Positions 4,393-31,444 of a DNA stretch of 38,696 bases are shown one piece after another. Origin of the DNA: Chrysochromulina tobinii (Eukaryota); the NCBI GenBank assembly GCA_001275005.1, contig JWZX01003168.1:1-38696 (forward strand), read 5' to 3'. The translations under genes and the position numbers were made by a program. A model generated the notes under the pieces. It ran no database searches. It worked only from the letters and a program-made list of their open reading frames with translations, and was not told the DNA's origin. Positions within the stretch are counted from its first letter, which is position 1. Every line of letters begins with the position of its first letter.

Positions 4393-7300
4393 ATGATGAG
4401 AACGCAAGTGCTGGCAGCTGGGCTCACGTGCATCGTCGCCGCCATGATCCTCGTGCGCCGTCGTCGACGCCGCCGCACGGCTCGTGGCTTTCACGACAGG
4501 CCTGCAGAGACCGATCTCGTCGAATTGCGGTCACTCTCTCGGGCGTTGGGATGCACGATCATGGCCAAGTGCGAGCACCAGCATCCGGGCGGATCTGTGA
4601 AAGACCGCGCAGCGCACGCGTTGATTCAGGCGGCCATCGAGTCTGGCGAGCTCCAGCCTGGCGGTACAATCGTGCAGGCCACAGGCGGCAACACGGGCAT
4701 TTCTCTGGCCATGATCGCCAAAGCCAAGGGCTACCGATGCCATTTAACGATCCCCGAGAACATCAGCAACGATAAGAAGGAGCTGCTCCGGATCCTGGGG
4801 GCCACCGTCACGGAGTGCCCGTGCGTGCCCTTTGCCGACCCACGCTCCTACTGCTCGCGGGCCCACGCGATCGCCAAGGCCACCAAGGGCGCCGTGTTGC
4901 CCGACCAATTCGAGCACGTCGCCAATGCAAAGGCCCACTATACCACGACGGGACCCGAGCTCTGGCGGCAGTGCGGGCAGGCACTGGACGGCTTCGTATG
5001 TGCGGCCGGCACAGGCGGTACGATTGCTGGCGTCTCGCGCTTCCTCAAGTCGGCCCACAGTGCCTGCGCCACCTTCCTCATCGATCCGACCGGCTCCGGC
5101 CACAAGTGCTTCGTGGAGACCGGACAATTTGCATCGTCCGGTTCGTGTTTCATCGACGGCATTGGGATCAGCCGTCGGACGGCCAACTTTGGCACCGCTG
5201 TCGTGGATGGAGCCTTTCGCGGCGACGATCGCGAGGCGATCGAGATGGCCTACTACCTGCTGCGGAACGAAGGACTGTTTGTTGGACCTTCGGCGGCGCT
5301 CAACGTGGTGGGCGCGGTCAAGCTCGCCCGCAAGCTCGGGCCAGGGAGCCGAGTGGCGACCGTGCTCTGCGACGGCGGCGAACGGTATCGCGCCACCACG
5401 TTCAACGCGGAGTGGCTTGCGAGCAAGGGCCTGACGCCCAAATGCCAGGGGGATGATCTCTCCTTCGTCAAGGAGGACCCACGCCACACCTTTGAGCTGA
5501 GCCACGAGATGTGGTCTCGCGTCATCTCCGATCTCGTGCGCAATCTCCCACGCGAGTGGCGAGGCACCACGTTCAACAACTCGAACCTGCTAGGGCGTGA
5601 AGGCTTCGCGTGCCGGCTGCATGATCTGCTGACGCGCCGAGCCTTCTCCGGCGAGCCGTTGGTCAGCGAGGATCTCGTCGATCTCGGTCAAGCGGAGGAT
5701 TACCTTCGCGTAGCTTCGAACGTCACCACCACGCTCGAGGCCATCCACGCGCGCCAGTCGGGCCTGGGCGTCTCCCGCGTCTTCAGCTTCCCTTCGGCGC
5801 TCCGGATGCCCATCGCGGCCGTCGTGCTCGCCACGGACAGGGCTGCGGCTGTGCGCGTCTACATTGGCGACGGCCCACCGCCGTTCACGCCAGAGCAGGA
5901 GCGAATGCTCGCACACGTCGGATGTGCACTCATCATCTCGCGCGGCGGGCCGCCGGCCACGCGTCAACGAGAGAGGCTGGCCCAGGAGGACGACGACAAG
6001 TCGGTCGTGCTCTGCGTCCCGTCCGCCCTCCCCGACCGAGGCATCTACAACCTGCGGCGGGCGCCTCCGAGCGCCGTCGACGGCATCGTCGGCGACGGCA
6101 TGCTGCTCATTTTGGACGAAAATCGGATCCGGCCTTCCGACATCCTCGTCGTCCGCAAGCGTCTCTGCACGCCGATGACGACGCCGGTCGCCATTCAGCG
6201 GCTCGAGCAGCTCGCATCAGGACGTGTGCGCGTCGCCGCCGACGCCGACGCGCCACCTCCCCAATCGGAGCTTGACGCATTCAACGCCCATCTGCAGGAA
6301 TTGTCGGGCACGAGCGTGGATGCCGACACCCCCCCAGTGTGCTACACCGCGGGCCTCTCGGCGCTCAGTGCGCTCTGGATTGCACTCATCGCCGGCGGCG
6401 GCGCAGACGTAGTCATGAGCTCCACAGCATACGGGGGCAGCTCGCAGGTGACTGACATCCTCGCCGCGCGAGCGCCATCGAAGCTGCGTAAGCACACGTT
6501 TGAGGTGAGCGGCTGCTCGCAGATTGTCGACACGGTGCGCGGCGCGCTCAACGGACTGCTTCAGCGTGCCTCCCACCATGATGGTGGCTCCACGGGATCC
6601 ACAACGGTCCTCCCGAGATCCTCCCGAGATCGAGATCCTCACGAGATCCTGAACGGCTCCACAACGGTCCTCTTCGTCGAAGCGCCCACGAATCCAGATA
6701 TGAAGGTACCCGACCTGCCCACGCTCGCAACGATGCTGGCCCAGCACGCGGCGGCGACAGGCGCTCGTCCGCTGCTGCTCGTCGACACGACGCTGGCTCC
6801 GATGTCGAGAGTGATGGCGAAGGCGAGGAGTGCAGCCCCAGATCTGCCCGTGATGGTACTACTCTCCATGTCCAAGAGCGTCTCGCGCGGGTTGACTACT
6901 GCGGGGGCTCTGGTCGCCAACCACGCCCCTGACGCTGCCGCGCTTCTCAGCCGCGCGCGAGATGTGGGCGAGATGCTCGAGACGATGGCGACCGACGACC
7001 AGATCCGGCGCCTTGTCGACAACCACGTGGGTACGGAGGAGCGTTGCGCGAAGGCGTACCGGGTTGCCATGGCAGTCGGCGCGCACCTGAGGGCGACCGT
7101 GAGAGAACATTGCGGCGCAACCATGGGATTGTCTACCGTGAGCGCCGAGGCTGCGAGTAACGGCTACGCCTCCACAACGATCTCGTTCAATCTGCCGCCC
7201 CCCAAAGGAACGTCGGAGCAGCAAGCGGCTGCTCTCGCGCAACGCTTTGTCGACGAGCTCTGCCTCGACAAGGCTCGCTTCAAGCCTTGCGTGTCATTTG

Positions 7301-7497
7301 GTCAGGATAACGGGCTCGTCTACTGCACCGTCCCAGCCACCTCCACCCAGGGCGCCATCAAAGCCGAGGATAAGGCGAAGCAAGAGGTTGGTGGCGTGCA
7401 GCTCGTGCGCCTCTCCTTCCCTCCATCGCTCGACGAGGAGGCAGCTTGCCAGACAGTGACGAGGGCAGTTCGCGCGTGCTACCCAACTGCAGCGTGA
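4393..7497 (+). CDS. Fusion of a cysteine synthase/CBS-like enzyme (PLP fold II) with a Cys/Met-metabolism PLP enzyme (cystathionine gamma-lyase/synthase-like, fold I); N-terminal membrane anchor
   Basis: N-half: PGGSVKDR (PLP lysine), TGGNTG, DQF, GTGGT, GPSA, LCDGGERY. C-half: EDYLRV, GLSA, AYGGS, FVEAPTNPDM, VDTT, SMSK, SFG. One uninterrupted 1034-aa ORF. Confidence 0.85.
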   Translation: MMRTQVLAAGLTCIVAAMILVRRRRRRRTARGFHDRPAETDLVELRSLSRALGCTIMAKCEHQHPGGSVKDRAAHALIQAAIESGELQPGGTIVQATGGNTGISLAMIAKAKGYRCHLTIPENISNDKKELLRILGATVTECPCVPFADPRSYCSRAHAIAKATKGAVLPDQFEHVANAKAHYTTTGPELWRQCGQALDGFVCAAGTGGTIAGVSRFLKSAHSACATFLIDPTGSGHKCFVETGQFASSGSCFIDGIGISRRTANFGTAVVDGAFRGDDREAIEMAYYLLRNEGLFVGPSAALNVVGAVKLARKLGPGSRVATVLCDGGERYRATTFNAEWLASKGLTPKCQGDDLSFVKEDPRHTFELSHEMWSRVISDLVRNLPREWRGTTFNNSNLLGREGFACRLHDLLTRRAFSGEPLVSEDLVDLGQAEDYLRVASNVTTTLEAIHARQSGLGVSRVFSFPSALRMPIAAVVLATDRAAAVRVYIGDGPPPFTPEQERMLAHVGCALIISRGGPPATRQRERLAQEDDDKSVVLCVPSALPDRGIYNLRRAPPSAVDGIVGDGMLLILDENRIRPSDILVVRKRLCTPMTTPVAIQRLEQLASGRVRVAADADAPPPQSELDAFNAHLQELSGTSVDADTPPVCYTAGLSALSALWIALIAGGGADVVMSSTAYGGSSQVTDILAARAPSKLRKHTFEVSGCSQIVDTVRGALNGLLQRASHHDGGSTGSTTVLPRSSRDRDPHEILNGSTTVLFVEAPTNPDMKVPDLPTLATMLAQHAAATGARPLLLVDTTLAPMSRVMAKARSAAPDLPVMVLLSMSKSVSRGLTTAGALVANHAPDAAALLSRARDVGEMLETMATDDQIRRLVDNHVGTEERCAKAYRVAMAVGAHLRATVREHCGATMGLSTVSAEAASNGYASTTISFNLPPPKGTSEQQAAALAQRFVDELCLDKARFKPCVSFGQDNGLVYCTVPATSTQGAIKAEDKAKQEVGGVQLVRLSFPPSLDEEAACQTVTRAVRACYPTAA

Positions 7498-20092: not shown

Positions 20093-20462
20093 GGAGCCGC
20101 AGCTGAGTGCAGGTACACCGTCTGCCGGTGCCGGGTGGAGGGCTCGCTGCAGGGTGCAGGTGCGCACAAGCTGCACCAAATAAAGTTTTTTGAAAATGTG
20201 TGCGGAGCCTTAGCTCCAAGAGTGTATGGACACCAACGACAGGAGCGCGCCGCTACGGGCGCACACGGCGGGGAGCCGCCAAAAACCCCAAAGGGGTTAG
20301 GGCCAGCGCCGGGGGCAACAGTAGCGCATCGCGTGGTGTGAACAAAGGGGGCGCCGGAACCTCCGAGCCCGCCTTCTCACCCCTTGGCGCGAATCGCAAA
20401 ACATGGCGATCGCATCCTCACGCACCCCGCTCGCACACACGCTCAAGCTCACGCAATAAAAC

Positions 20463-23400
20463 ATGCCGATCACGTTCGCCATTCACTACAAGCTCGCGGC
20501 CATGGGAGCCTCGGCCGACGACACCAAGCGCGACCGTGCGCTGCACCCGGTCTATGAGGCGGCCGGCAGCGCGAAGTTTGATGGATGGCTTCTTCACCCG
20601 CCGCGCGACGGCGAAGTCGACGGCGGCATCGCCGGTGTCCTTCCGGGCACGCTGGCAAAAATTTGCATGGCATTCGTGCAGTGTGGCGACGATATTGTCA
20701 ACGAAAGCGTCGGGGATAATGGCCTCATACTGGCAGTCGCCTGGGAACGCATCCTCACCACCCTCGCCGAGGTGCACGGGGGGGATGGCTCGAAGGCCAT
20801 TTCGCTGGGCTGCCTCTACGAGGACATGGACGCCAAGCTCTCCAAGGCCACGCCGGTACAGCTCGCTCAGCTCACTCTCTACAAGCACGACCTCGGATCG
20901 TCCATCTCGTTGGCGAGTAAGCCTGTGGCCCCGGTACCGAGCACTGACCCAGCGGCGGCTGCGGCCAATGCGGCGGCGCTCCTTGTGCACGCGCAAGCGC
21001 TGGGCAATTGGGAGGGCAACGAGAAGCACCCCTTCACCTGGCTTCGCCTGCTCACGTTTGGCGACCTGCGCGACAACACTACGGGGCGCCTCGGCGCACT
21101 CGGAAGGCTGATGTGCGCCACCCCCACGTGGGTCTCGGACACGACGCGCGGCGAGGCCATATTCCGGCGCACGCTCACGGCCCTCGCCAAAGCCGCGATC
21201 GAGGGCACCGACATCCAGGTCGGCGACGCCGACGACGTGGCGGGCTGCGTGGCCGAAAAGCTGAAGCTCATCGATCTCCCTCGCGCGATGGAGAGCTTCG
21301 GCGGAGCCACGCAGGAGGCGCGCTCTCGCGCGCTCCTCAAGGAGATCAAGGCGATTGTCAACCCCGCCGCGCGGCAGGAACTTCTTCGCGAACGCTTCAT
21401 CGAGGCCATCGACCGGCTGGCGGGCGTACGGGCCCTCGTGGGCATCCGCGCTGGCGGCGGGTGCGACATGGGCAGCTCCGCATGCTTCGGACTTTGCGCG
21501 GAAGTGGCTACTCGGATGGGCCTCTGCCGCTCGGAGGACGAGTTCTCCTGGGCGTCGCTGCGGGCGCTGCGCGACGAGATCGCTCACCTCGACGAGATGC
21601 TCAGCGCCGAGCCATGGGTCCACCGCACGGCGCGCGACCGTGCGGATCGCGTCATCGATTTCCACCGGACGCAAGCGAAGCGGTCGTCCGCCGCGTCGGT
21701 GCTGTACTCTACGCCCGACCGGACCGCGACGGGACGCAGCCCGGACACCGCGCTGACCGCGGCGGAGTCGCGTCTAAGAGGCACCGTGCCCAGACACTTC
21801 CAAGGGGACTTGTCTCAGGCTACTTCCAATACGCAGTGGCTCGCGCTCAAGGCGGCCATCATCGGCCGTCTAGCGTTGGGCGGCAAAGGATGCCACCTGG
21901 ACGCCATGCAGATCGGGGCATCCGGCGTTGCCCTCGACCCGGCTACGAATATGCCCAAGCAGCGCCAATGGTGCCCGCTGATGGCCATGCTCGCCGAGGG
22001 CGCCACGCGTGGCGTGGATGCGGCAACACTCGATCCGGAGCTGCAAGCACTCACCGACGCAGCGCGCGACCGGTGGCCGGAACTGTACGGCCGCACAGCA
22101 GGGCTCCAACTGGCGCTCGATAAGACGACGCTCCCCGAGGAACTGGAGGGCTGGTGCCTGGACGAGCTGGCGAAGGCATTTGCGTCCGCCGACTGGAGCG
22201 CCATCGACCTCGGCGCGGCATTCGAGCAAACGCGGGCACGCATGCGCTGCGAGAAGTTCGAGGCCGGGCCCGCGGACAAGGCGTACACGAACAGGCGCAG
22301 CATCGAAAATGCTCTCAAGGTAGCCGAGCCCATGCTCATGCTGAGAGGCTTCGGCGGCAACGGCAAGGGCACGTTACCCTTCGTCCTCGAGGAGGTGCGC
22401 CAATCATGGGTCCTCTACGGCGGTCAAGGGGCGCACGAGAAAACCCTCGCGAAGCTAGCTTCGGAAGGGCGCGCATACGTGGTCGACACCCTCGCACATT
22501 TTGGTCGCGTACGCCACGCGGCCATCGCAACCAAGAACCCTCTCGCCCCGGACCACGAGCGCACGACCACGGCGGCGGCAGCTCAGCGCTGGGCGCGCCA
22601 CCTGATTAAGCTGCAGGGCGCTCTCAGCCTCGCCAGCTACGCCGAATATTTTGGCGGCGGGGGCGCGGGCGGAGGCGGCGGAGGCGCGAGCGGGCAATCT
22701 GGCGACGGCGAAGACGGCAGCGGCGGCGGTGGCAGCGGCCACGGAGCCGGCGGGAGTGGCAAGGCAGCCAAGCGCCAGCGCAAGGAGCCGAATGGAGATG
22801 CCGCGAGCGACACACGCGGTGTGACGATGTCCCTCAACCTCAGGGCCGGCACCCTCACCATCACCCCCAAGGACGGCAAGCCCAGGACCTACATCACCGC
22901 GCGCATGCGCGAGCGCGCCAAGAACCCTAAGCGATGCTGCTTCAAAGGAATGGCGGCGGCGGCGCTCCAGATGCAAGAGCGGGCATTCTGCGACTTCGAC
23001 CACAAAGAAGGCAGCACAGAACACCAATGGGCGGCAGCTGGCCCAAACCTCAGTCTCTGCCGATCTGACGGCGTGGAGCGCCCGAAGAAGAAGCAAAAAA
23101 CGGGTCACGATGACGACACGGCGACCGGCGCGGGCGGCGACGACGCCGACGACGGCGACGACGACGACGGCGACGAAGGCGACGCCGATGACGAGGGCGA
23201 CGCAGATGACGCAGGCGGCGCTGGAGCGGACACCGGAGCCGGCGCCGGCGACCCACCCGCACCCGGCAAATCCTCGGCTGCCGCGCGCGGCGGCGGGAAA
23301 GGCGGGAAAGGCGGCAAGGGCAGAGGCCGCGGCGGCAAGGGCGGCGGGCGGAGCGGCGGCAAGGGCGGTCGCAAGACTGTCGCGTTCACAGCCGCTGCGA

Positions 23401-24698
23401 CCACGGCGCCCACGGGCGCGTCGGGGGACGCCACCTCCACAACAACCGCGGCAGCCGGCATGCTTGCCGACGTCACTCAGGCGGGCTATTCCGAGGACGG
23501 CGGCATTGTACGCGTCACGGACCCTGTCCTCGTACAAGCGCTCACGCGCCTCAACCCGCCAATCACGACCATCACTATCGGCGACGACAGTGGGCTCCTA
23601 CGCGACGCGTCCAATAGCGCGGGATGGCCCGCTGTTTCCACCTCCACACTGCCGTGCACGAGCGCGCGACCAGGATTCAGCTTCGCGGGCGACGTCCGCG
23701 ATGTCCTTCGCGTCGCTCAATGGCGACGTGCGATCGCCGCTCCTGACTGGCGCCAGCAAGCTGCGCGCATGGGCCTCAGCATGGCGGCGGTCAAGGCTTC
23801 GGACGGCCGCATTTTCGCATGTATGGCCGCGTGGCTGTACCTTTGGTGCACAGCAGCGGCAGCTGTGTGCATCATGCAGCCGGATATCTTCACAGTCGAT
23901 TTCTATGACGCGCCCTTCGTTGCCACATCACCGGACGCGTGGGGCGACAACGGCAGCGACAGGACGCTGCTTTTCTGGCGTGGCTCCGCGATGCCAGTGC
24001 CGCCCGACGAGAGTGGCAGCACTGCGGCGCCCGTCCTCGAGCGCGCGCAAGCAGGGGGGCAGGCGTGGGCCCCGTCATCCTCGAAACTCGCACACGGTAT
24101 CGCCACGCAGCTCGTGCCCGACGGCAGCGGACCCGACCTTCGGTTCGCCGTCGAGATCGAGCGACTCGCAGCCGCCATGTACTCGGTAGGGCTCCCTATC
24201 CCGCCATGGTACAGCCGTGAGGACGGCGGGCCGCCCGAGCGGGCGGAGCGCGCCTACATGCACGAGCGCGGGCTCGGCGATGGACGACGATTGGACGGCC
24301 GTACCGTCCCTCTGCTGGCACGACGGGATCTCGGCGATCCCGCTTGGCGTGCCGGCATCAACGAGCGCCTCGCCGACACCCTTATGCACTCGAGCATTCC
24401 AGTGGTGTCACGGCGCGGGCACGCGCTCGCCGATGCGTACAGAGCGCTCCGGCGGACCGACGCTGAGCGCGCGCTACGCAAAAGGGCGGCGCGCGCACAA
24501 CGCCGCCTGGAACACGATCGGCTGCGTCCACGCCGACACGCCCGCAACGAATTCGGTCGCGGTCGTGCCGGGACGCATCGTCCACGGCGTCGTCATGCTG
24601 CTATTCCCTGGCGCCTCGCACGCAGCGGCGACCGTGGCAGGTCGCCCGCTGCCTTGCGCGCACGGCGCCACGTCCGAATCGCGCAAACTCATCACTAG
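20463..24698 (+). CDS. Retroelement ORF1: Gag-like region, Cys/His cluster, acidic and KGG/RGG tracts, degenerate phage-type C5 cytosine methyltransferase-like domain
   Basis: 1411-aa ORF upstream of pol. CC...CDFDH...H at 22935-23024, acidic and GGKGG tracts, MTase-like block at 23562-24113. The Gag call is positional. Confidence 0.75.
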   Translation: MPITFAIHYKLAAMGASADDTKRDRALHPVYEAAGSAKFDGWLLHPPRDGEVDGGIAGVLPGTLAKICMAFVQCGDDIVNESVGDNGLILAVAWERILTTLAEVHGGDGSKAISLGCLYEDMDAKLSKATPVQLAQLTLYKHDLGSSISLASKPVAPVPSTDPAAAAANAAALLVHAQALGNWEGNEKHPFTWLRLLTFGDLRDNTTGRLGALGRLMCATPTWVSDTTRGEAIFRRTLTALAKAAIEGTDIQVGDADDVAGCVAEKLKLIDLPRAMESFGGATQEARSRALLKEIKAIVNPAARQELLRERFIEAIDRLAGVRALVGIRAGGGCDMGSSACFGLCAEVATRMGLCRSEDEFSWASLRALRDEIAHLDEMLSAEPWVHRTARDRADRVIDFHRTQAKRSSAASVLYSTPDRTATGRSPDTALTAAESRLRGTVPRHFQGDLSQATSNTQWLALKAAIIGRLALGGKGCHLDAMQIGASGVALDPATNMPKQRQWCPLMAMLAEGATRGVDAATLDPELQALTDAARDRWPELYGRTAGLQLALDKTTLPEELEGWCLDELAKAFASADWSAIDLGAAFEQTRARMRCEKFEAGPADKAYTNRRSIENALKVAEPMLMLRGFGGNGKGTLPFVLEEVRQSWVLYGGQGAHEKTLAKLASEGRAYVVDTLAHFGRVRHAAIATKNPLAPDHERTTTAAAAQRWARHLIKLQGALSLASYAEYFGGGGAGGGGGGASGQSGDGEDGSGGGGSGHGAGGSGKAAKRQRKEPNGDAASDTRGVTMSLNLRAGTLTITPKDGKPRTYITARMRERAKNPKRCCFKGMAAAALQMQERAFCDFDHKEGSTEHQWAAAGPNLSLCRSDGVERPKKKQKTGHDDDTATGAGGDDADDGDDDDGDEGDADDEGDADDAGGAGADTGAGAGDPPAPGKSSAAARGGGKGGKGGKGRGRGGKGGGRSGGKGGRKTVAFTAAATTAPTGASGDATSTTTAAAGMLADVTQAGYSEDGGIVRVTDPVLVQALTRLNPPITTITIGDDSGLLRDASNSAGWPAVSTSTLPCTSARPGFSFAGDVRDVLRVAQWRRAIAAPDWRQQAARMGLSMAAVKASDGRIFACMAAWLYLWCTAAAAVCIMQPDIFTVDFYDAPFVATSPDAWGDNGSDRTLLFWRGSAMPVPPDESGSTAAPVLERAQAGGQAWAPSSSKLAHGIATQLVPDGSGPDLRFAVEIERLAAAMYSVGLPIPPWYSREDGGPPERAERAYMHERGLGDGRRLDGRTVPLLARRDLGDPAWRAGINERLADTLMHSSIPVVSRRGHALADAYRALRRTDAERALRKRAARAQRRLEHDRLRPRRHARNEFGRGRAGTHRPRRRHAAIPWRLARSGDRGRSPAALRARRHVRIAQTHH

Positions 24699-27600
24699 CG
24701 CCGCCGAGGCGATTGGAGACGTGCTCATCGACGCGGGCGCCGCCCGCGACGCGCACGCTGTACGGGCTCGGAGCGCTCTCGCCGCCATCCTCACACGGGG
24801 AGACGTGTCGCTGGCCATCGTGGTCACACTCGTCCCGCCGCAAGTGGATATCAGCTCAGAGGCGGTCAGCGCAGGCTACTCATGGCAGCGCGCGGCGGCG
24901 GCGGCCGGCTCTCCCCGGCACGCTCTTGCGTGCATTGCGGAGCAATACCTGCTACGCTGGGTTACCGCGTCGAGAGATATCTGCATCGCGGGCGTCCGCA
25001 CCGGGGTCGCCAAGGCGCAGCCTACGGCGCGTGCGCTCGATCCCAATCGCCTGAAGAGCGTCGACATGGATGCCGCTACGCGCGAAGAGGCAAGCGCGCT
25101 ACTCTGTGTGGCAGACGGGCTGCTCGAGGCCGCCGCACGCGAACCGCACCTTGCTGACGCGCTCTTATGCTGGCGCGAGAAGGTCACCACCGCGCGCGAC
25201 TTCGCACCTCCGGCAATCGTCGCCGCGGCTGGGCGGGAGCCGCCCGCCTCTCTGGCGAGCAAGCCCTTCAAGCACCGCTGCACTATCCCGAGCACGACGC
25301 CGGTCCCAGTGCAATGGAAGGCGCCGCGGTGGCCCGTTGGCGTGCCAGCACCGGCGACCTTGCTCGACACGTACACGCCGACGGCCCGCGCCGAAGTGCG
25401 CGCGCAGCTGGAAGCGGTCGCTCGGTGGAACGCGACGCGGGTAGGGGGCACTATGGCGCCCCGCCCCGTCCACCGCAGCTGGAGTGACAAAGCGCGCCTG
25501 CCATGGTTCCAAGGCCGCGTGCTATGGGAACGCGACGGCAAATGCGCGCTCGTCGACGGGCGTCTTCCCGCCACGCGCGTTCGCATGCACCGCGAGGCGG
25601 CGCTCTGGCTGCTGCGCGACTACCCGCACAGGCAACTTGTGTCTTTCCTGGTACATGGGGTCACGCTACACGACGACCTCCCTCTTCAGACGTCCATCGC
25701 CGCCAACCTTCTCTCGTTCTACGACGTGCGTGGCGGACCTGACGGCGTAGCCGAAGAAATGCACGGGCTCAAGGAGCGCGGCTGGTATCTCAGCAGCGCG
25801 GGCCTAATTGCGACATCCGCGGCGGTCGCGTCCACAGCAGCGCAGAAGGCGGACACGGCGGCGATGGCGCCAGTGCAGCCCGCGGCGGAATTGACCTCAC
25901 TGCGAGAGGCGCGTCTGATGACGTCGCCGGCCAGGATAAACCCGCGCGGCGCGGTAGCGCGCAAGGATTTAGGGCCGCCCCGAGGAGTAGCCGAGCTCGG
26001 TCACCCACGGCGCGAAACGGTCACGACCGACACCGGCGAGATCGTCACCTCAGTCAACGAGGCCACCAGCACGGAGCGCAGCGTGGCCACCGGCGACGAT
26101 TTCTGGGCGCGGCCGGAGATCAAGCCAAGGCCGAGCGATCTCGTGCTCAACCTGCTCATCCTTCGGGCCATGGGCAATTGCCTGCGGCCGGCCTTCGGCG
26201 GCACGGCACCGGCCATCCTGCTCATCCTCTTCGACTACAAATACTTCTTCCACTCGCTGGCGTACATGGCAGGCGAGGTGTGGAAAACCGGATGCGCCGT
26301 GCCCGCGCGGGCAGCACCGGGCGTGGCGCACCGTAAGCGCTACGACGTCCTTGCGGAGCTCGTCCTAGCCATGGGGTGGACGCAGGCGAGCAAGGTAGCC
26401 CAGGACTTTGGCAACGCCCTTATGTGGCTGCTACTTCGCGCCTTGGACAAGGCGCTCGCCCCGCACGTTGCCGAACTTCGCGAGGCGAGCAAGGCCTTCG
26501 ACTCGATGTGGAAGGGCAGGCTGGCGCTCCAACATGACGACTATGGTACACAAGCGCGCGTCGTCACCGCGTTGCAATACACTGACGACAGCGTCAAGGC
26601 GTGCCTGGGAGCAACGGCCACCGTCACCACCATTGTTGAATTTTGTCGCATCATTGGGCCTCGCTTCTACGCCGGGCCCGACGCACACGAAGCCGCTCGT
26701 GGCACGGTCACGCGATCCGTCGTTGACGAATACGGTGTCGCGCTGCAGGCGTGGCGGCAGCTCGCGCCCAAAGGCAGCGTACGCGCCCACGGGCGAGACG
26801 AGCCCGCGCCGGCCCATGCTAGCACCGTCCCCATTGGAAGGGGAACCGCCGCTGGCAACCCATTTCCAGTCACCGCAACGCAAGACGCGACTCGGGTGAC
26901 CACGGGCTTCGCCTGCTTTCTCGCCAGCGTGCCAGACACATCAGCGCGCGCGGTCGGAGCCCTTCTGAACTTACAAGTCGCCCAGGGGCATGACGAGCGG
27001 CTCGCAGGGCAGCTCCAGGCATATGCCGATCAGCTCGCCTCTCGCGTGCGCGCGGGAGAGCACCTCGCTCTTCAATGCCCGGGCTGCCGCTGTCCCTTGC
27101 AACCGGGGCGATGCCACGCCACGGTTTTCGCGGCGGCGATCGCACAGCGCTGTTCGATAGCACTGGAGGAGGCGGCAGGTCCGCCGACGGACCCAGTTAT
27201 CGCCCCGCCACGGGAGGCCCTCGGGCTTGATCTCGAGGCGGCCAAGATGCACAAATGGCATCTCGGCGGCAGCGGCATCTGGACGGGAGTCGGCGTGAGC
27301 GCAACATTCCTCGTCATTTGGGTCCCGCAGGCGAAAGCGGTGCGATGCCTGGTCGAGATCGCCGACGTGCTCGACGGGCGCTGCGAGGTGGCTCGGTACC
27401 GCAGCCTTCATGGGGCCCTCGCCGACCTCGTCCTCCCCACTGGTGGTGATTGGTACCGCATGCAGGGCATGGCGGTGCCGCTGCGGAGCGACCAGGAGCT
27501 CGGCGAAGGCCCCAACGTTCTTGTGCGCGAGAGACCGCAACTGTGGAAACGACTCAAGGCCTGGCAGACTCTTCTGGCCAACAGCCCTGGATCACCCATG

Positions 27601-30600
27601 ACCGCCACACTCCCAGCGGCGCATTCAGCCGTGCGCACCGACATCGTCACCTGGGACATTGGCGGTGATGCCGCCAAAGATGGCGTGCCCAAACAGGGCC
27701 TAGGCGCATGGTTCTATGGAGTCTGGTGGTGCGCGCCACTTGGGGACTGGCCTGCGCTCGCAGACGCGCACATCACGTGCCTCGAGCTCGTCGAGGTAGG
27801 GCTCGGCGTCGTCATGACGGCCAGATGGCTCGCCGGGGCGAAGCGCGTACGGCTCCGGGCTGACGCGATGGCAGCCTTCCTCACGCTACGTGCGCGGCGG
27901 GATGACGGCTCGCTCGCGCGCGGCGCACAAGCAGCGGAGCTCGTCGCGGCGCACGAGGTCATCATGCAGCAGCCAGAGTGGAAACGGCTACATGACGGTC
28001 GGTGCGAGATTCTCACCGAGCAAACGTTCGGCGAGAGCATGCTGCTGCACGACGCAGCTAGCCGCAACAACCCCGAGCTCATCCGAGACGTGAGCGCTGC
28101 CCTAGGCGTCGTCCCGAAACGGATCGAGCTCTCGGCACGTGCTCGGGCATACCTGCAGGACGTGTCGAACGCGCTCCTCGACACGCGGCGAGGCGCCGCA
28201 CAGCACGCACCGATGCACGCCGCCGCACTCGAACACGGCGCGGCCGGCAATGGTTCAGGGCCGCGCACGCCCTTCTCTCAGGCATGGCCTGGAGCAGCTG
28301 CCTCATCAGCTCGCGCGATGCAACAGCAGATGCAAGCCGACGAGGGCACGGTAGGCGCGCCTCGGCCGTGCGATGAGCAGCTGTGGCTTTTTATACTTTT
28401 CTACGAATCCTACCTCCTCGCCCTCGACGACGAGGCGCTCGCTGGCTTACCGTCTCCACCGTCAAGCGACTACTGGGATTCGCCCCACTCGATTGACAGC
28501 TACAACAATTGGGAACCACCAGACCTCGATCCGCCTGACGAGTTGTCGCCCGGCGAGTGGTTCCCAACCGGCCTCCATCACGCGTGGTCACCTGGCGACG
28601 ACCCGTACCCCGATTCGCCGCAGGGCTCTGGCGGCGACACCGGCGCGGTCGCGGACGCCGTCGACACCGGCGTGACCTGCGCGGCGCGAGATTCACACGT
28701 ACCCATGCACGCCGCTGCTCTCGAGCACGGCGCGGCTGCCAACGGCACTGGCCCGCGCACGCCCTTCGCTCAGGCTTGGCCGGGTGCGCCTGCCTGCTTG
28801 CTGCGCGCAATGCAACGGCAGACGGGCGACGGCGCATCCGACGCATTCACAGCTGGCGCGGCGCAGCACGCCCGGCAGGCGCACGCCGAAGGGCGTCGCC
28901 ACGGGTGCGCGATGGCACCGGCGCCAGCGCTCGGGGCACCATCGGGAGCACCTGACCTGACCGACAGAGTCCTCGCCCGGCGCACCAATCGGAGGCAGGC
29001 CCAGAGCCCGCCCGAGTGTGACGACGACGAGCACGCGACCGCCTTCTCGGCCGCCCTGGCTCGCTGCGCCTCAGGACGCGCACGTTTTCGCGGTCCAGGC
29101 GCCGACCCTGTCGCGCCTTCCCGCGCCCTCGTCACGGCTCGCGCGGTGGCGCCCCCGCTCCGGGCGGTTGAGATCGCGCGGAACGCGCTGCTTACAACGG
29201 CGGCCGCGCCCGCCATGCCAGTGGCGGCACGGCGTGGAGCGGCCGAGCTCGAAGAATCGCAGCGCATGCTCATAGAGCGCAGCATCAAAGACGCTCGGTG
29301 CGACGAGGACGGCCTCGGCATCAGCGGCGCGAGCGACGAGCTCCTTCGAGGGCTGCTCACGGCGGCAATGCTCGCGGTCGAGAAGCGCTTTGCGCCCTCC
29401 ACTCGCGGGCAGGACCGATCCTACTGGAGAATGTGGGCCGAGTGGTGCGATAGCATCGGCACGCCGCCTCTCCGCACCAATTCCGCCGCCAACGACGGGC
29501 GCATCGAACATCTACACCGGCGCGAGGTTGCCCTGGCTCTGGGCGCTTTCATGACCTGGGCGGCGGAGGCGGAGCAACGCGGCTACAAGACTGAGAGCAT
29601 GCTCAACCGGCTGCGCGGCGTGGCGCGGCGCCACTGGGCGGTCACGATTCGATTCGTGTCCCTCGCGCTCGTCGTGCAGGCGGCGCAGGGGCTTGTGCGC
29701 GAGCACATCGATGCCCACGGCGCTGACGCGCTGCGTCGACGCTCCAAGGAGCCACTTGAGACGGCGGAAATCTTCGCGCTCCTCAATCTCCCGAAGGGCA
29801 CCCTCGTAGCCCACGGGTCCTCGTGCGTGGTAGTCGGCGACAACCTCGAATGGCAGGGCGTGGTCGTCTTCATCAACTTGTACTGCACGGGCGGCTGGCG
29901 CAAGGAGGCCATCGCGCTGGGGCCCAAAGAGGTCTTCGGGGGGCGCAAGCTCTCCTTAAGCGAGGTCACGTATCGCATCGGAGGCACCCTCCACCGGGAA
30001 CCGACCGTCGCGATCCTCCAGCAGATCACGTGGGGCGACATGTGCTACATAAACCCGGTGCCTTGCAAGAATGACCCGGACAACTCGAAATTCGGGAGCT
30101 CGCCGGTACCGTCGCGCTACCACGCGACGCAGCCCATCTGCCTGGTGCGCGAGCTCGCCAAATACGAGATCATGCGCATGCGCGCCGACCCCATCGCCTC
30201 GTCTCGGACGCCCCGCAAGGAGATGCCGCTCGTGCTGTCGCCCGCCGGCCGCTCCTGGGCCAAGGCCGACCTCGGCAAGTTCTTCGACGGGCTCATTCGA
30301 CACGTGTGCTCTGAGGAACGCGCCAAACAGCTCTCGGTACACAGCTTCCGCGTGTGGCTCGCCTGCGCGCTGCTCGCAGCAGGGGCCACGCCGGAGCAGA
30401 TTATGCTGATGGTGCGATGGTCGTCGGAAGCCGCGCGGAAACTTTACGCGAGGCTCGCGATGACGACACAATGCTCGCTCCAGGCCGGCGCCGTCGACGC
30501 CAGCTTCGATTCGATCCGAGCGCACACGCTCCTTGACGCGTCCGCGGCGGCCGCTGTCAGCGACGAAGCGCGCGCCGCCGCAGAGGCGCTGCAGGCGACC

Positions 30601-30813
30601 ACCTCCCTGATCGACGCCGTCACGGTCGGCGCAGGAGCACACGTCGCCGCAGCCAAAGACCTCCGGCGCACATGCAACATCGACGACGATGACGTCTTTG
30701 GACTGCTCGACGAGGCGAGCCATGCGCTCGAGGGCCTCGCCGTGAGCGCGGACGCTGCCTTCACGGAGACGGCAGCGACCGAGCCGCAGGCCGAGTCCGA
30801 CGACGAACCGTGA
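24217..30813 (+). CDS. Retroelement ORF2: reverse transcriptase (with DUF4326-like insertion), RNase H and tyrosine recombinase in a single frame
   Basis: RT: LFDYKYFFH (D 26233), LAMGW (26371), YTDD (26578-26589). RNase H: GDAA (27667), LEL (27784), RAD (27862), DAASR (28051). Recombinase: APST...W, GWR (29899), K (30067), HSFR (30340-30351), RW, Y (30445). The true start is probably reached from ORF1. Confidence 0.9.
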   Translation: MRTAGRPSGRSAPTCTSAGSAMDDDWTAVPSLCWHDGISAIPLGVPASTSASPTPLCTRAFQWCHGAGTRSPMRTERSGGPTLSARYAKGRRAHNAAWNTIGCVHADTPATNSVAVVPGRIVHGVVMLLFPGASHAAATVAGRPLPCAHGATSESRKLITSAAEAIGDVLIDAGAARDAHAVRARSALAAILTRGDVSLAIVVTLVPPQVDISSEAVSAGYSWQRAAAAAGSPRHALACIAEQYLLRWVTASRDICIAGVRTGVAKAQPTARALDPNRLKSVDMDAATREEASALLCVADGLLEAAAREPHLADALLCWREKVTTARDFAPPAIVAAAGREPPASLASKPFKHRCTIPSTTPVPVQWKAPRWPVGVPAPATLLDTYTPTARAEVRAQLEAVARWNATRVGGTMAPRPVHRSWSDKARLPWFQGRVLWERDGKCALVDGRLPATRVRMHREAALWLLRDYPHRQLVSFLVHGVTLHDDLPLQTSIAANLLSFYDVRGGPDGVAEEMHGLKERGWYLSSAGLIATSAAVASTAAQKADTAAMAPVQPAAELTSLREARLMTSPARINPRGAVARKDLGPPRGVAELGHPRRETVTTDTGEIVTSVNEATSTERSVATGDDFWARPEIKPRPSDLVLNLLILRAMGNCLRPAFGGTAPAILLILFDYKYFFHSLAYMAGEVWKTGCAVPARAAPGVAHRKRYDVLAELVLAMGWTQASKVAQDFGNALMWLLLRALDKALAPHVAELREASKAFDSMWKGRLALQHDDYGTQARVVTALQYTDDSVKACLGATATVTTIVEFCRIIGPRFYAGPDAHEAARGTVTRSVVDEYGVALQAWRQLAPKGSVRAHGRDEPAPAHASTVPIGRGTAAGNPFPVTATQDATRVTTGFACFLASVPDTSARAVGALLNLQVAQGHDERLAGQLQAYADQLASRVRAGEHLALQCPGCRCPLQPGRCHATVFAAAIAQRCSIALEEAAGPPTDPVIAPPREALGLDLEAAKMHKWHLGGSGIWTGVGVSATFLVIWVPQAKAVRCLVEIADVLDGRCEVARYRSLHGALADLVLPTGGDWYRMQGMAVPLRSDQELGEGPNVLVRERPQLWKRLKAWQTLLANSPGSPMTATLPAAHSAVRTDIVTWDIGGDAAKDGVPKQGLGAWFYGVWWCAPLGDWPALADAHITCLELVEVGLGVVMTARWLAGAKRVRLRADAMAAFLTLRARRDDGSLARGAQAAELVAAHEVIMQQPEWKRLHDGRCEILTEQTFGESMLLHDAASRNNPELIRDVSAALGVVPKRIELSARARAYLQDVSNALLDTRRGAAQHAPMHAAALEHGAAGNGSGPRTPFSQAWPGAAASSARAMQQQMQADEGTVGAPRPCDEQLWLFILFYESYLLALDDEALAGLPSPPSSDYWDSPHSIDSYNNWEPPDLDPPDELSPGEWFPTGLHHAWSPGDDPYPDSPQGSGGDTGAVADAVDTGVTCAARDSHVPMHAAALEHGAAANGTGPRTPFAQAWPGAPACLLRAMQRQTGDGASDAFTAGAAQHARQAHAEGRRHGCAMAPAPALGAPSGAPDLTDRVLARRTNRRQAQSPPECDDDEHATAFSAALARCASGRARFRGPGADPVAPSRALVTARAVAPPLRAVEIARNALLTTAAAPAMPVAARRGAAELEESQRMLIERSIKDARCDEDGLGISGASDELLRGLLTAAMLAVEKRFAPSTRGQDRSYWRMWAEWCDSIGTPPLRTNSAANDGRIEHLHRREVALALGAFMTWAAEAEQRGYKTESMLNRLRGVARRHWAVTIRFVSLALVVQAAQGLVREHIDAHGADALRRRSKEPLETAEIFALLNLPKGTLVAHGSSCVVVGDNLEWQGVVVFINLYCTGGWRKEAIALGPKEVFGGRKLSLSEVTYRIGGTLHREPTVAILQQITWGDMCYINPVPCKNDPDNSKFGSSPVPSRYHATQPICLVRELAKYEIMRMRADPIASSRTPRKEMPLVLSPAGRSWAKADLGKFFDGLIRHVCSEERAKQLSVHSFRVWLACALLAAGATPEQIMLMVRWSSEAARKLYARLAMTTQCSLQAGAVDASFDSIRAHTLLDASAAAAVSDEARAAAEALQATTSLIDAVTVGAGAHVAAAKDLRRTCNIDDDDVFGLLDEASHALEGLAVSADAAFTETAATEPQAESDDEP
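28204..28824 (+). repeat. Two diverged copies of an approximately 42-codon motif in ORF2 (about 28204-28329 and 28696-28821)
   Basis: HAPMHAAALEHGAAGNGSGPRTPFSQAWPG versus HVPMHAAALEHGAAANGTGPRTPFAQAWPG. Confidence 0.95.
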
Positions 30814-31444
30814 GTCCCGCCCCGAAACGGGCTGTGACGCACGGTCACATAGCAGTGCGAGGCGAGCACTACGGTGCCAGCCCGAGCACGGATGCACGAA
30901 CGCACGGCCATCGCAGTGCGCGGCGAGCACCACGGTGCCTGCCCAGTAACCTCCGCTGCGGCGGAGGCAACCAGCAGACGGCGCGAAACCCACACGGGTC
31001 GCGGCAGTCGGCAGAGCACGGCAGAAGCAGTGCGGGGTATCACGCAGACGGCGCGGAACCTTCGGGTCGCGGCAGTCGGCTCAGCACGGCAGAGGCAGTG
31101 CGGGGTATCGTGCAGAGGCACGTACAGGAACGCCAGTGGCGTGACCAACCCACCCACCCGAGAGGGACATACCATAGGGAGGCGACAGATCTGCGCTCAG
31201 CCGCGAGGGACAGTAGCCAGAACGACCGAGATGATCGCCGAGATACACTATCTCGGAGTTTATCTCGGCGAGTTCTGGCGAAGTGCCCAGGGCACGAGAT
31301 GCAACCGAGGATCGGTCGGACCCAATTACCGAGTATGTCCCTATAGCATAGTAAGATGCTAATCCTGTGTACCTATCCACAGGTCACTATTCACAGAGCT
31401 TGAGCGCTCCAAACGAAACAACCATACCAGCCCCGCGGGGCTAA
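30814..31444 (+). other. Structured 3' non-coding region of the retroelement (tandem duplications and a hairpin array)
   Basis: Duplications at 30838/30901 and 30974/31044. Six ACGG(C/T)...GCAGT stems, several UNCG/GNRA-capped hairpins, and 10-11 bp perfect inverted repeats. Confidence 0.75.

Follow-up and report, generated by a model that had tools for sequence, protein, structure and literature searches.

Phages, giant viruses and bacteria commonly carry DUF4326, a domain whose function is predicted only. Iyer et al. grouped it with SLOG, Macro and NADAR and predicted for it a role in ADP-ribose terminal-phosphate processing (PMC9503650, PMC7824862). NADAR itself strips ADP-ribose from guanine, eukaryotes included (PMC11543638), and the C-terminal domain of RapZ (RapZ-C) has a Cys/His/Arg pocket that binds sulphate and the RNA backbone (PMC9841335).

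Cargo capture by retrotransposons is already known, given the published NADAR domains of Gypsy and Tx1 elements, for which an action on the RNA intermediate was proposed (PMC12477816), and the methylases of DIRS elements (PMC5890265). In the available portions of the literature on DUF4326, haptophyte Ngaro elements, NADAR in retrotransposons and Chrysochromulina DIRS elements, no retrotransposon DUF4326 is reported; fusions of this kind may be included in supplements to the Aravind papers. Here we describe a DUF4326 domain within the reverse transcriptase (RT) of a retrotransposon from Chrysochromulina tobinii, found in a window of 38,696 nucleotides (the whole stretch of DNA analysed, contig JWZX01003168.1), which ties the domain to eukaryotic nucleic-acid copying.

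The retrotransposon carrying the insert

The element, at positions 20198-31427 of the window, is a Ngaro-like tyrosine-recombinase retrotransposon, an assignment that comes from its repeats and domains, our trees being built without named Ngaro reference elements. Its features are as follows.

20198..20463, + strand: 5' terminal repeat A1, a split direct repeat (78% to the 276-bp A repeat present twice in sister locus L009)
20463..24479, + strand: Gag-like N-terminal part of the polyprotein (ORF1), whose frame continues to 24698; Gag by position only, with no Pfam match
24480..24490, + strand: frameshift through four bases that the near-identical copy L018 lacks; it splits an ORF that is single in relatives
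24190..30813, + strand: open frame with RT, DUF4326, RNase H and tyrosine recombinase (ORF2)
26227..26658, + strand: first part of the RT palm, with motif A (26227-26253), motif B, YTDD (26578-26589) and the helix after it (motifs, structure model)
26659..26769, + strand: N-terminal flank of the insert, like the 30-34-residue loop of short-loop relatives (statistical support weak)
26770..27165, + strand: DUF4326 core, with IGRGTAAGNPF at 26833-26865 and the Cys/His motif at 27076-27117 (Pfam, pLDDT, RapZ-C, Foldseek)
27166..27222, + strand: C-terminal flank of the insert, GPPxDPV (comparison with relatives)
27223..27620, + strand: RT resumes with motifs D and E (27223-27294) and the thumb (motifs, structure)
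27652..28065, + strand: RNase H, its motifs supplying four acidic residues (Z 11.2 to RNase H1)
29890..30456, + strand: tyrosine recombinase motifs R, K, HxxR, W and Y
31207..31427, + strand: 3' terminal repeat B, one copy (96% to the B repeat present twice in L009); A2 and the second B absent

Pfam called no RT in the window protein, and the identity of RT and RNase H comes from motifs and structure. Downstream of these lie HSFR at 30340 and a Tyr near 30445; the Pfam Phage_integrase match is weak in the window copy (E 0.28) and reaches E 1e-5 to 1e-7 in relatives. Pfam matched no Dam-type methyltransferase in the two frames of the window element, with E values up to 1 considered. In L009, 276-bp A and 222-bp B repeats follow the order A1-ORFs-B1-A2-B2, and in L005 both A and B are repeated, while the window copy has A1 and one B only.

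The 'ORF2' that the earlier note treated as a separate ORF is a product of the frameshift in this copy, as relatives have one Gag-RT-RH-YR frame (L005, 3481 aa; L012, 3288 aa; P0036, 3444 aa). The frameshift is common to L002 and absent from L017/L018. With the frameshift and the missing 3' repeats, the window copy is probably dead; the lack of A2-B2 may, however, reflect a collapse in the assembly. Two proteins point to a haptophyte host: one from Chrysochromulina parva, which shares its cluster with a 90%-identical relative, and another, insert-bearing one from Prymnesium.

Several further observations concern the locus. AAAAT directly precedes repeat A1 at two insertion sites (window 20193-20197; L009 1016-1020), a possible target preference. 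A 127-bp in-frame duplication follows RNase H (window 28204-28330 and 28696-28822), and tandem repeats that vary among families stand ahead of repeat B (window 30836-31206). L009-L011 and L004 carry internal inversions and deletions, yet their insert is intact. Elsewhere in the window, 4393-7497 encodes, without introns, a PALP (cysteine-synthase-like) domain fused to a PLP domain of Cys/Met metabolism.

Extent and frame of the insert

Translated on the + strand, 26659-27225 yields 189 residues without a stop, including IGRGTAAGNPF and CPGCRCPLQPGRCH. They correspond to residues 824-1012 of the 2207-residue frame and are flanked by YTDD and by GLDLEAAKMHKW...WTGVG (27223-27294), which agrees with the earlier placement of the segment in frame inside the RT, after YTDD and its helix. 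The RT loop is longer by 186-188 residues than in insert-free relatives and by 152-156 than in short-loop relatives. The whole segment had been taken as the domain; it stands as the insert, but the DUF4326 core proper is narrower (26770-27165), and this core probably sits within an older loop of ~30 residues. The edges of the module are marked by P0263/P0128, a 376-residue protein that has a palm-type core (56% identity to the window core) without an RT around it.

GGGC is indeed present at both junctions (26656-59 and 27223-26), as pointed out before, but no meaning attaches to it: it consists of a conserved codon for Gly and a single further base, and the junction tetramers of three sister families are GGAC/GGCC, GGAC/GGCC and GGAC/GGAC. 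A target duplication is therefore ruled out.

Identity and predicted structure of the inserted domain

The proposal that the insert is a DUF4326 domain was borne out by profile search. Pfam DUF4326 (PF14216) matched the window protein with E 4.6e-8 and 34 bits, above the cut-off of 25, and the core alone with E 2e-8 and 35.2 bits. Both the N-terminal motif IGR..GNPF and the C-terminal three Cys, Pro and His (C963, C966, P969, C975, H976) are present, the latter invariant in 20 close copies, and the spacing of the cysteines is longer than usual for DUF4326. The canonical phage-type loop CxCxPxxCHG[DE] is not matched: the window has CPGCRCPLQPGRCHAT, without the acidic residue after CH that occurs in 24/24 viral and 34/37 prokaryotic DUF4326 domains in samples chosen by one pattern.

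All nine motif residues are invariant in the 20 close, mutually related copies, against 50 of the 132 core positions. A figure of 1e-4 for this invariance is too strong, since the copies are related and two non-motif cysteines are likewise invariant. Across the palm lineages, C-C-CH is kept in 9 of 12 (counted by eye), the core identity among lineages that keep the motif residues being about 30-45%. The other three retain the domain with a broken motif (motif gone in P0018, cysteines gone in P0019, His gone in P0020), and the hydrophobic pattern of the fold and the flanks are still present in them. Catalysis is argued against chiefly by this departure from the usual motif and by the three lineages that have lost it.

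Searches for a donor of the core found no match among stand-alone proteins, viral contigs, solved sequences or the Atlas, and in phages gave only matches at E above 1. A core-alignment search of longer proteins returned eight, all from the same element family or its fragments, which is weak evidence on absence elsewhere.

An AlphaFold model from motif A to the thumb (396 residues, 69 sequences; mean pLDDT 83.7, pTM 0.55) had a core pLDDT of 92-98 and ~50 in the first linker, so that the orientation of the domain is not set by the model. The palm of MMLV RT aligned to it with Z 9.8 and an rmsd of 2.5 over 120 residues spanning model positions 4-374, that is, across the insert. On the point that the earlier note had proposed to check by structure prediction, the RT palm is predicted to close around DUF4326, and the insert is predicted to fold on its own, carried on two linkers. 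Comparison of the insert with RapZ-C gave Z 6.3 (6.2 in the first model), rmsd 3.4 and 97 aligned residues, a middling score in the range that the tool calls common. With Foldseek, the best named viral match in BFVD was a phage DUF4326 (E 7.9e-4, prob 1.0), and nothing was found in the PDB at E 0.001. Burroughs and Aravind reportedly described a RapZ-C/DUF488/DUF4326 clade in 2023.

These features would also suit a domain that is no enzyme and has become part of the RT, either gripping the RNA template/primer, probably with zinc to stabilise it, or offering a surface for protein contacts. Three Cys and a His would suit a metal site, the acidic residue after CH is absent, the motif-less lineages keep the hydrophobic pattern and flanks, and the nearest solved fold, RapZ-C, binds RNA backbone (PMC9841335). 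The same three Cys and His are, however, shared by stand-alone phage and bacterial DUF4326, and similar domains occur at sites remote from the palm (see below). We regard such a grip as possible, if on the unlikely side.

Selection on the insert

Pairwise dN/dS among four families (Nei-Gojobori) was 0.14-0.26 for the core; RT motifs A-C gave 0.07-0.11 and non-enzyme/linker regions 0.21-0.34. For the whole insert it was 0.12-0.23 among close families and for the N-terminal flank 0.02-0.19; the pair with the distant L012 was saturated (0.41). Neutral simulations gave median values of 0.89-0.97 with a minimum of 0.45. The comparison among sister elements that had been suggested thus shows purifying selection, with the core far below the neutral value of about 0.9. 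The overlap of core and linker values counts against the tethered processing considered below. The dS of the insert is near 1, like that of its flanks, so the insert descended together with the element.

These values decide whether the segment might be an intron or an intein, missing from the working RT. The earlier note had argued from the lack of GT-AG ends, which is correct for the exact ends but fails as an argument, as 55 in-frame GT/GC..AG pairs lie close to the junctions; the ends alone leave an intron possible, and it is the selection on the insert, with dN/dS far under neutral and dS near 1, that excludes one. The insert is also stop-free in every full-length copy listed. As to an intein, there is no Hint domain, and the termini (N-terminal Cys/Ser/Thr, C-terminal His-Asn) are absent, as already stated in that note. 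RNA runs matched 5-13% of words, in contigs that stem from related copies, so that they are no sign of expression of the window copy, and gaps in cover are meaningless. In an RNA library, one contig of a related copy runs through the 5' junction without a break, and the insert is skipped by no joint; the test is a weak one, with contigs of this origin and libraries that may hold DNA. We consider removal of the segment by either route very improbable.

Distribution and phylogeny

Protein searches gave 22 and 150 relatives among the matches listed. Out of 238 proteins examined, 127 matched the profiles on both sides of the insert; with one set aside for want of the DD motif, this left 102 distinct sequences. 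The spacing from YxDD to motif D falls at 27-40 residues in 71 of them, 59-63 in nine and 207-215 in 22, and no long insert other than the DUF4326 type was found at the palm loop of these RTs. No RT relatives were found among viral contigs.

In RT trees computed with the insert left out, the long-insert state forms a single clade (100/100), nested in a clade of long-insert and short-loop sequences (99/97), so that the presence/absence check proposed earlier finds the insert marking one clade, with 22 of the 102 distinct RTs. The short-loop state is paraphyletic (95/95), although its monophyly was not rejected (p-AU 0.069). Nesting of the short loop within the long clade was rejected in both forms tried. 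The likely order is that the short loop came first and DUF4326 entered later. When the short loop was compared with the insert flank, the score lay above nearly all shuffles in just two of eight inserts tested, and a homology of short loop and flanks is suggestive at the level of sequence.

DUF4326 and other cargo elsewhere in the family

DUF4326 also occurs outside the palm. P0150, which has no palm insert, carries it N-terminal of the RT (Pfam 31.4 bits; first Atlas match DUF4326 at 0.89). DUF4326-like domains that score under the Pfam cut-off were found in the RT fingers of P0179 (Pfam E 0.028, profile comparison E 1.4e-6; its sister P0165 is without it), after RNase H in P0119 and P0142 (partial or degenerate) and at the N-terminus of P0110, P0203 and P0219. 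Leave-one-out profiles gave 42, 27.5, 13.4 and 21 bits for P0150, P0179, P0119 and P0142, and at most 4 for reversed sequences. The view of a captured domain displayed on the RT keeps the backing of Pfam and of palm closure in the model, but the palm site is not special, with three other places in relatives. Given these domains N-terminal of the RT, in the fingers and after RNase H, tethering to Pol matters more than the palm site.

On the question of a single origin, retroelement DUF4326 domains grouped together (100/99) against 24 viral domains, but after the addition of 12 viral domains, 17 prokaryotic ones and two degenerate copies the grouping appeared in just 35% of bootstrap trees.

The distribution raises a further reading, in which the domain is a tolerated passenger, once useful or never, kept because palm closure needs its folding and clean deletion is rare. 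Consistent with this, the insert is absent from 71 of the 102 distinct RTs and nine more have just a short loop, the motif is lost in 3 of 12 palm lineages, the core dN/dS is close to linker values, and DUF4326-like domains elsewhere are often degenerate. Yet motif residues persist across lineages with about 30-45% core identity, and Arg, GNPF and C-C-CH are not needed for foldability alone. A passenger of this kind seems to us rather unlikely.

Other cargo was found as well. Scanning of 166 family proteins, many of them fragments, found NADAR in four (three above cut-off) and a C5 methylase in 13, and never NADAR and DUF4326 together in one protein. NADAR lies upstream of the RT in P0023, P0204, P0230 and P0166, on at least three separate branches, and follows the C5 methylase domain in P0166. 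We also observed a deoxynucleoside kinase after RNase H (P0219 1622-1792), an MBD (P0230 2085-2133), a GNAT (P0142 732-779) and a weak NUDIX domain (P0218 256-332). P0119 (about 1320-1470) and P0101 (about 1000-1140) have, after RNase H, regions that look SET-like by eye from what we take to be the SET motif; Pfam gave no SET match. Of 24 viral DUF4326 loci (28 scanned, with no background control), seven have SLOG, NADAR, NUDIX or NAD synthase at a distance of 2 kb or less, and one viral protein (L040 3-4106) unites NADAR, AlkB-like, DUF4326 and helicase domains.

Possible function

We give close to an even chance to the reading that DUF4326 in the RT palm serves as a tethered accessory, either binding phosphate-bearing groups on the RNA or cDNA of the element or taking them off. 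A domain of prokaryotic or viral origin would have entered an older short loop of the palm and, with Gag, RT, RNase H and recombinase on one chain, would be delivered to the RNA/cDNA intermediate. No protease was seen in the polyprotein, and in such a single chain any position should keep the domain near RNA and cDNA. The Arg/GNPF and Cys/His motifs may form a phosphate pocket, with ADP-ribose-derived adducts or blocked ends on RNA or cDNA as candidate targets. In favour of this reading we count the Pfam match, the modelled palm and RapZ-C-like fold, the low core dN/dS, the persistence of the motif residues, the similar domains at other positions, the NADAR domains of relatives, the neighbours of viral DUF4326 and the prediction of Iyer et al. 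An action on the nucleic-acid intermediate or against host defence, as raised in the earlier note, is likewise suggested by context.

A bolder extension is that haptophytes hit retrotransposon intermediates with ADP-ribosylation or end-blocking and that the family repeatedly added phage-type erasers (DUF4326, NADAR) to Pol, once in the palm, which would make DUF4326 a nucleic-acid repair enzyme. We hold this to be rather unlikely. The breadth of the cargo (13 C5 methylases, deoxynucleoside kinase, MBD, GNAT) counts against the tethered-accessory reading, as NADAR may then be just one of many captures.

The family offers natural controls, with insert-free and short-loop RTs, intact and lost motifs, and four positions of the domain. 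The RT loop between motifs C and D is able to bear a whole folded domain over long divergence and, with NADAR in related elements, the question arises whether protists turn ADP-ribose chemistry on transposons.

Comparison with known systems

Compared with the DUF4326 of phages, NCLDVs and bacteria (PMC9503650, PMC7824862), the window domain shares IGR..GNPF, the three Cys and His, and a Pfam score above cut-off; both are fused to nucleic-acid enzymes, and the best Foldseek matches are in BFVD. It differs in its place in a eukaryotic retrotransposon, in ~30 extra mid-domain residues, in the longer Cys spacing and in having no acidic residue after CH. The predicted fold and Cys..His loop are like those of RapZ-C (PDB 5o5s; PMC9841335), but identity is 14%, and the RapZ Arg after His is Ala in the window, going by the motif and not by a residue-level alignment.

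The A1-ORFs-B1A2B2 repeats of sister copies match the Ngaro layout (DIRS order), and RT, RNase H, tyrosine recombinase and the lack of a Dam methylase are common to both (PMC8547959, PMC3783388, PMC3266345). Elements of the window family are about 11 kb long, whereas Cafeteria Ngaro is about 6 kb, and they have a single Gag-RT-RH-YR frame of about 3300-3480 residues with the domain inside the RT. NADAR-bearing Ectocarpus Gypsy and oyster Tx1 LINEs are likewise retrotransposons with a domain of the NAD/ADP-ribose network (PMC12477816), but domain and element class differ, and NADAR there stands N-terminal of Pol or belongs to ORF1 instead of lying within the RT. SymbioDIRS-Dnmt3 resembles the window family in being a YR retrotransposon with split repeats whose Pol has captured an enzyme, at positions that vary; its cargo, in a dinoflagellate host, is a cytosine methylase of known chemistry (PMC5890265).
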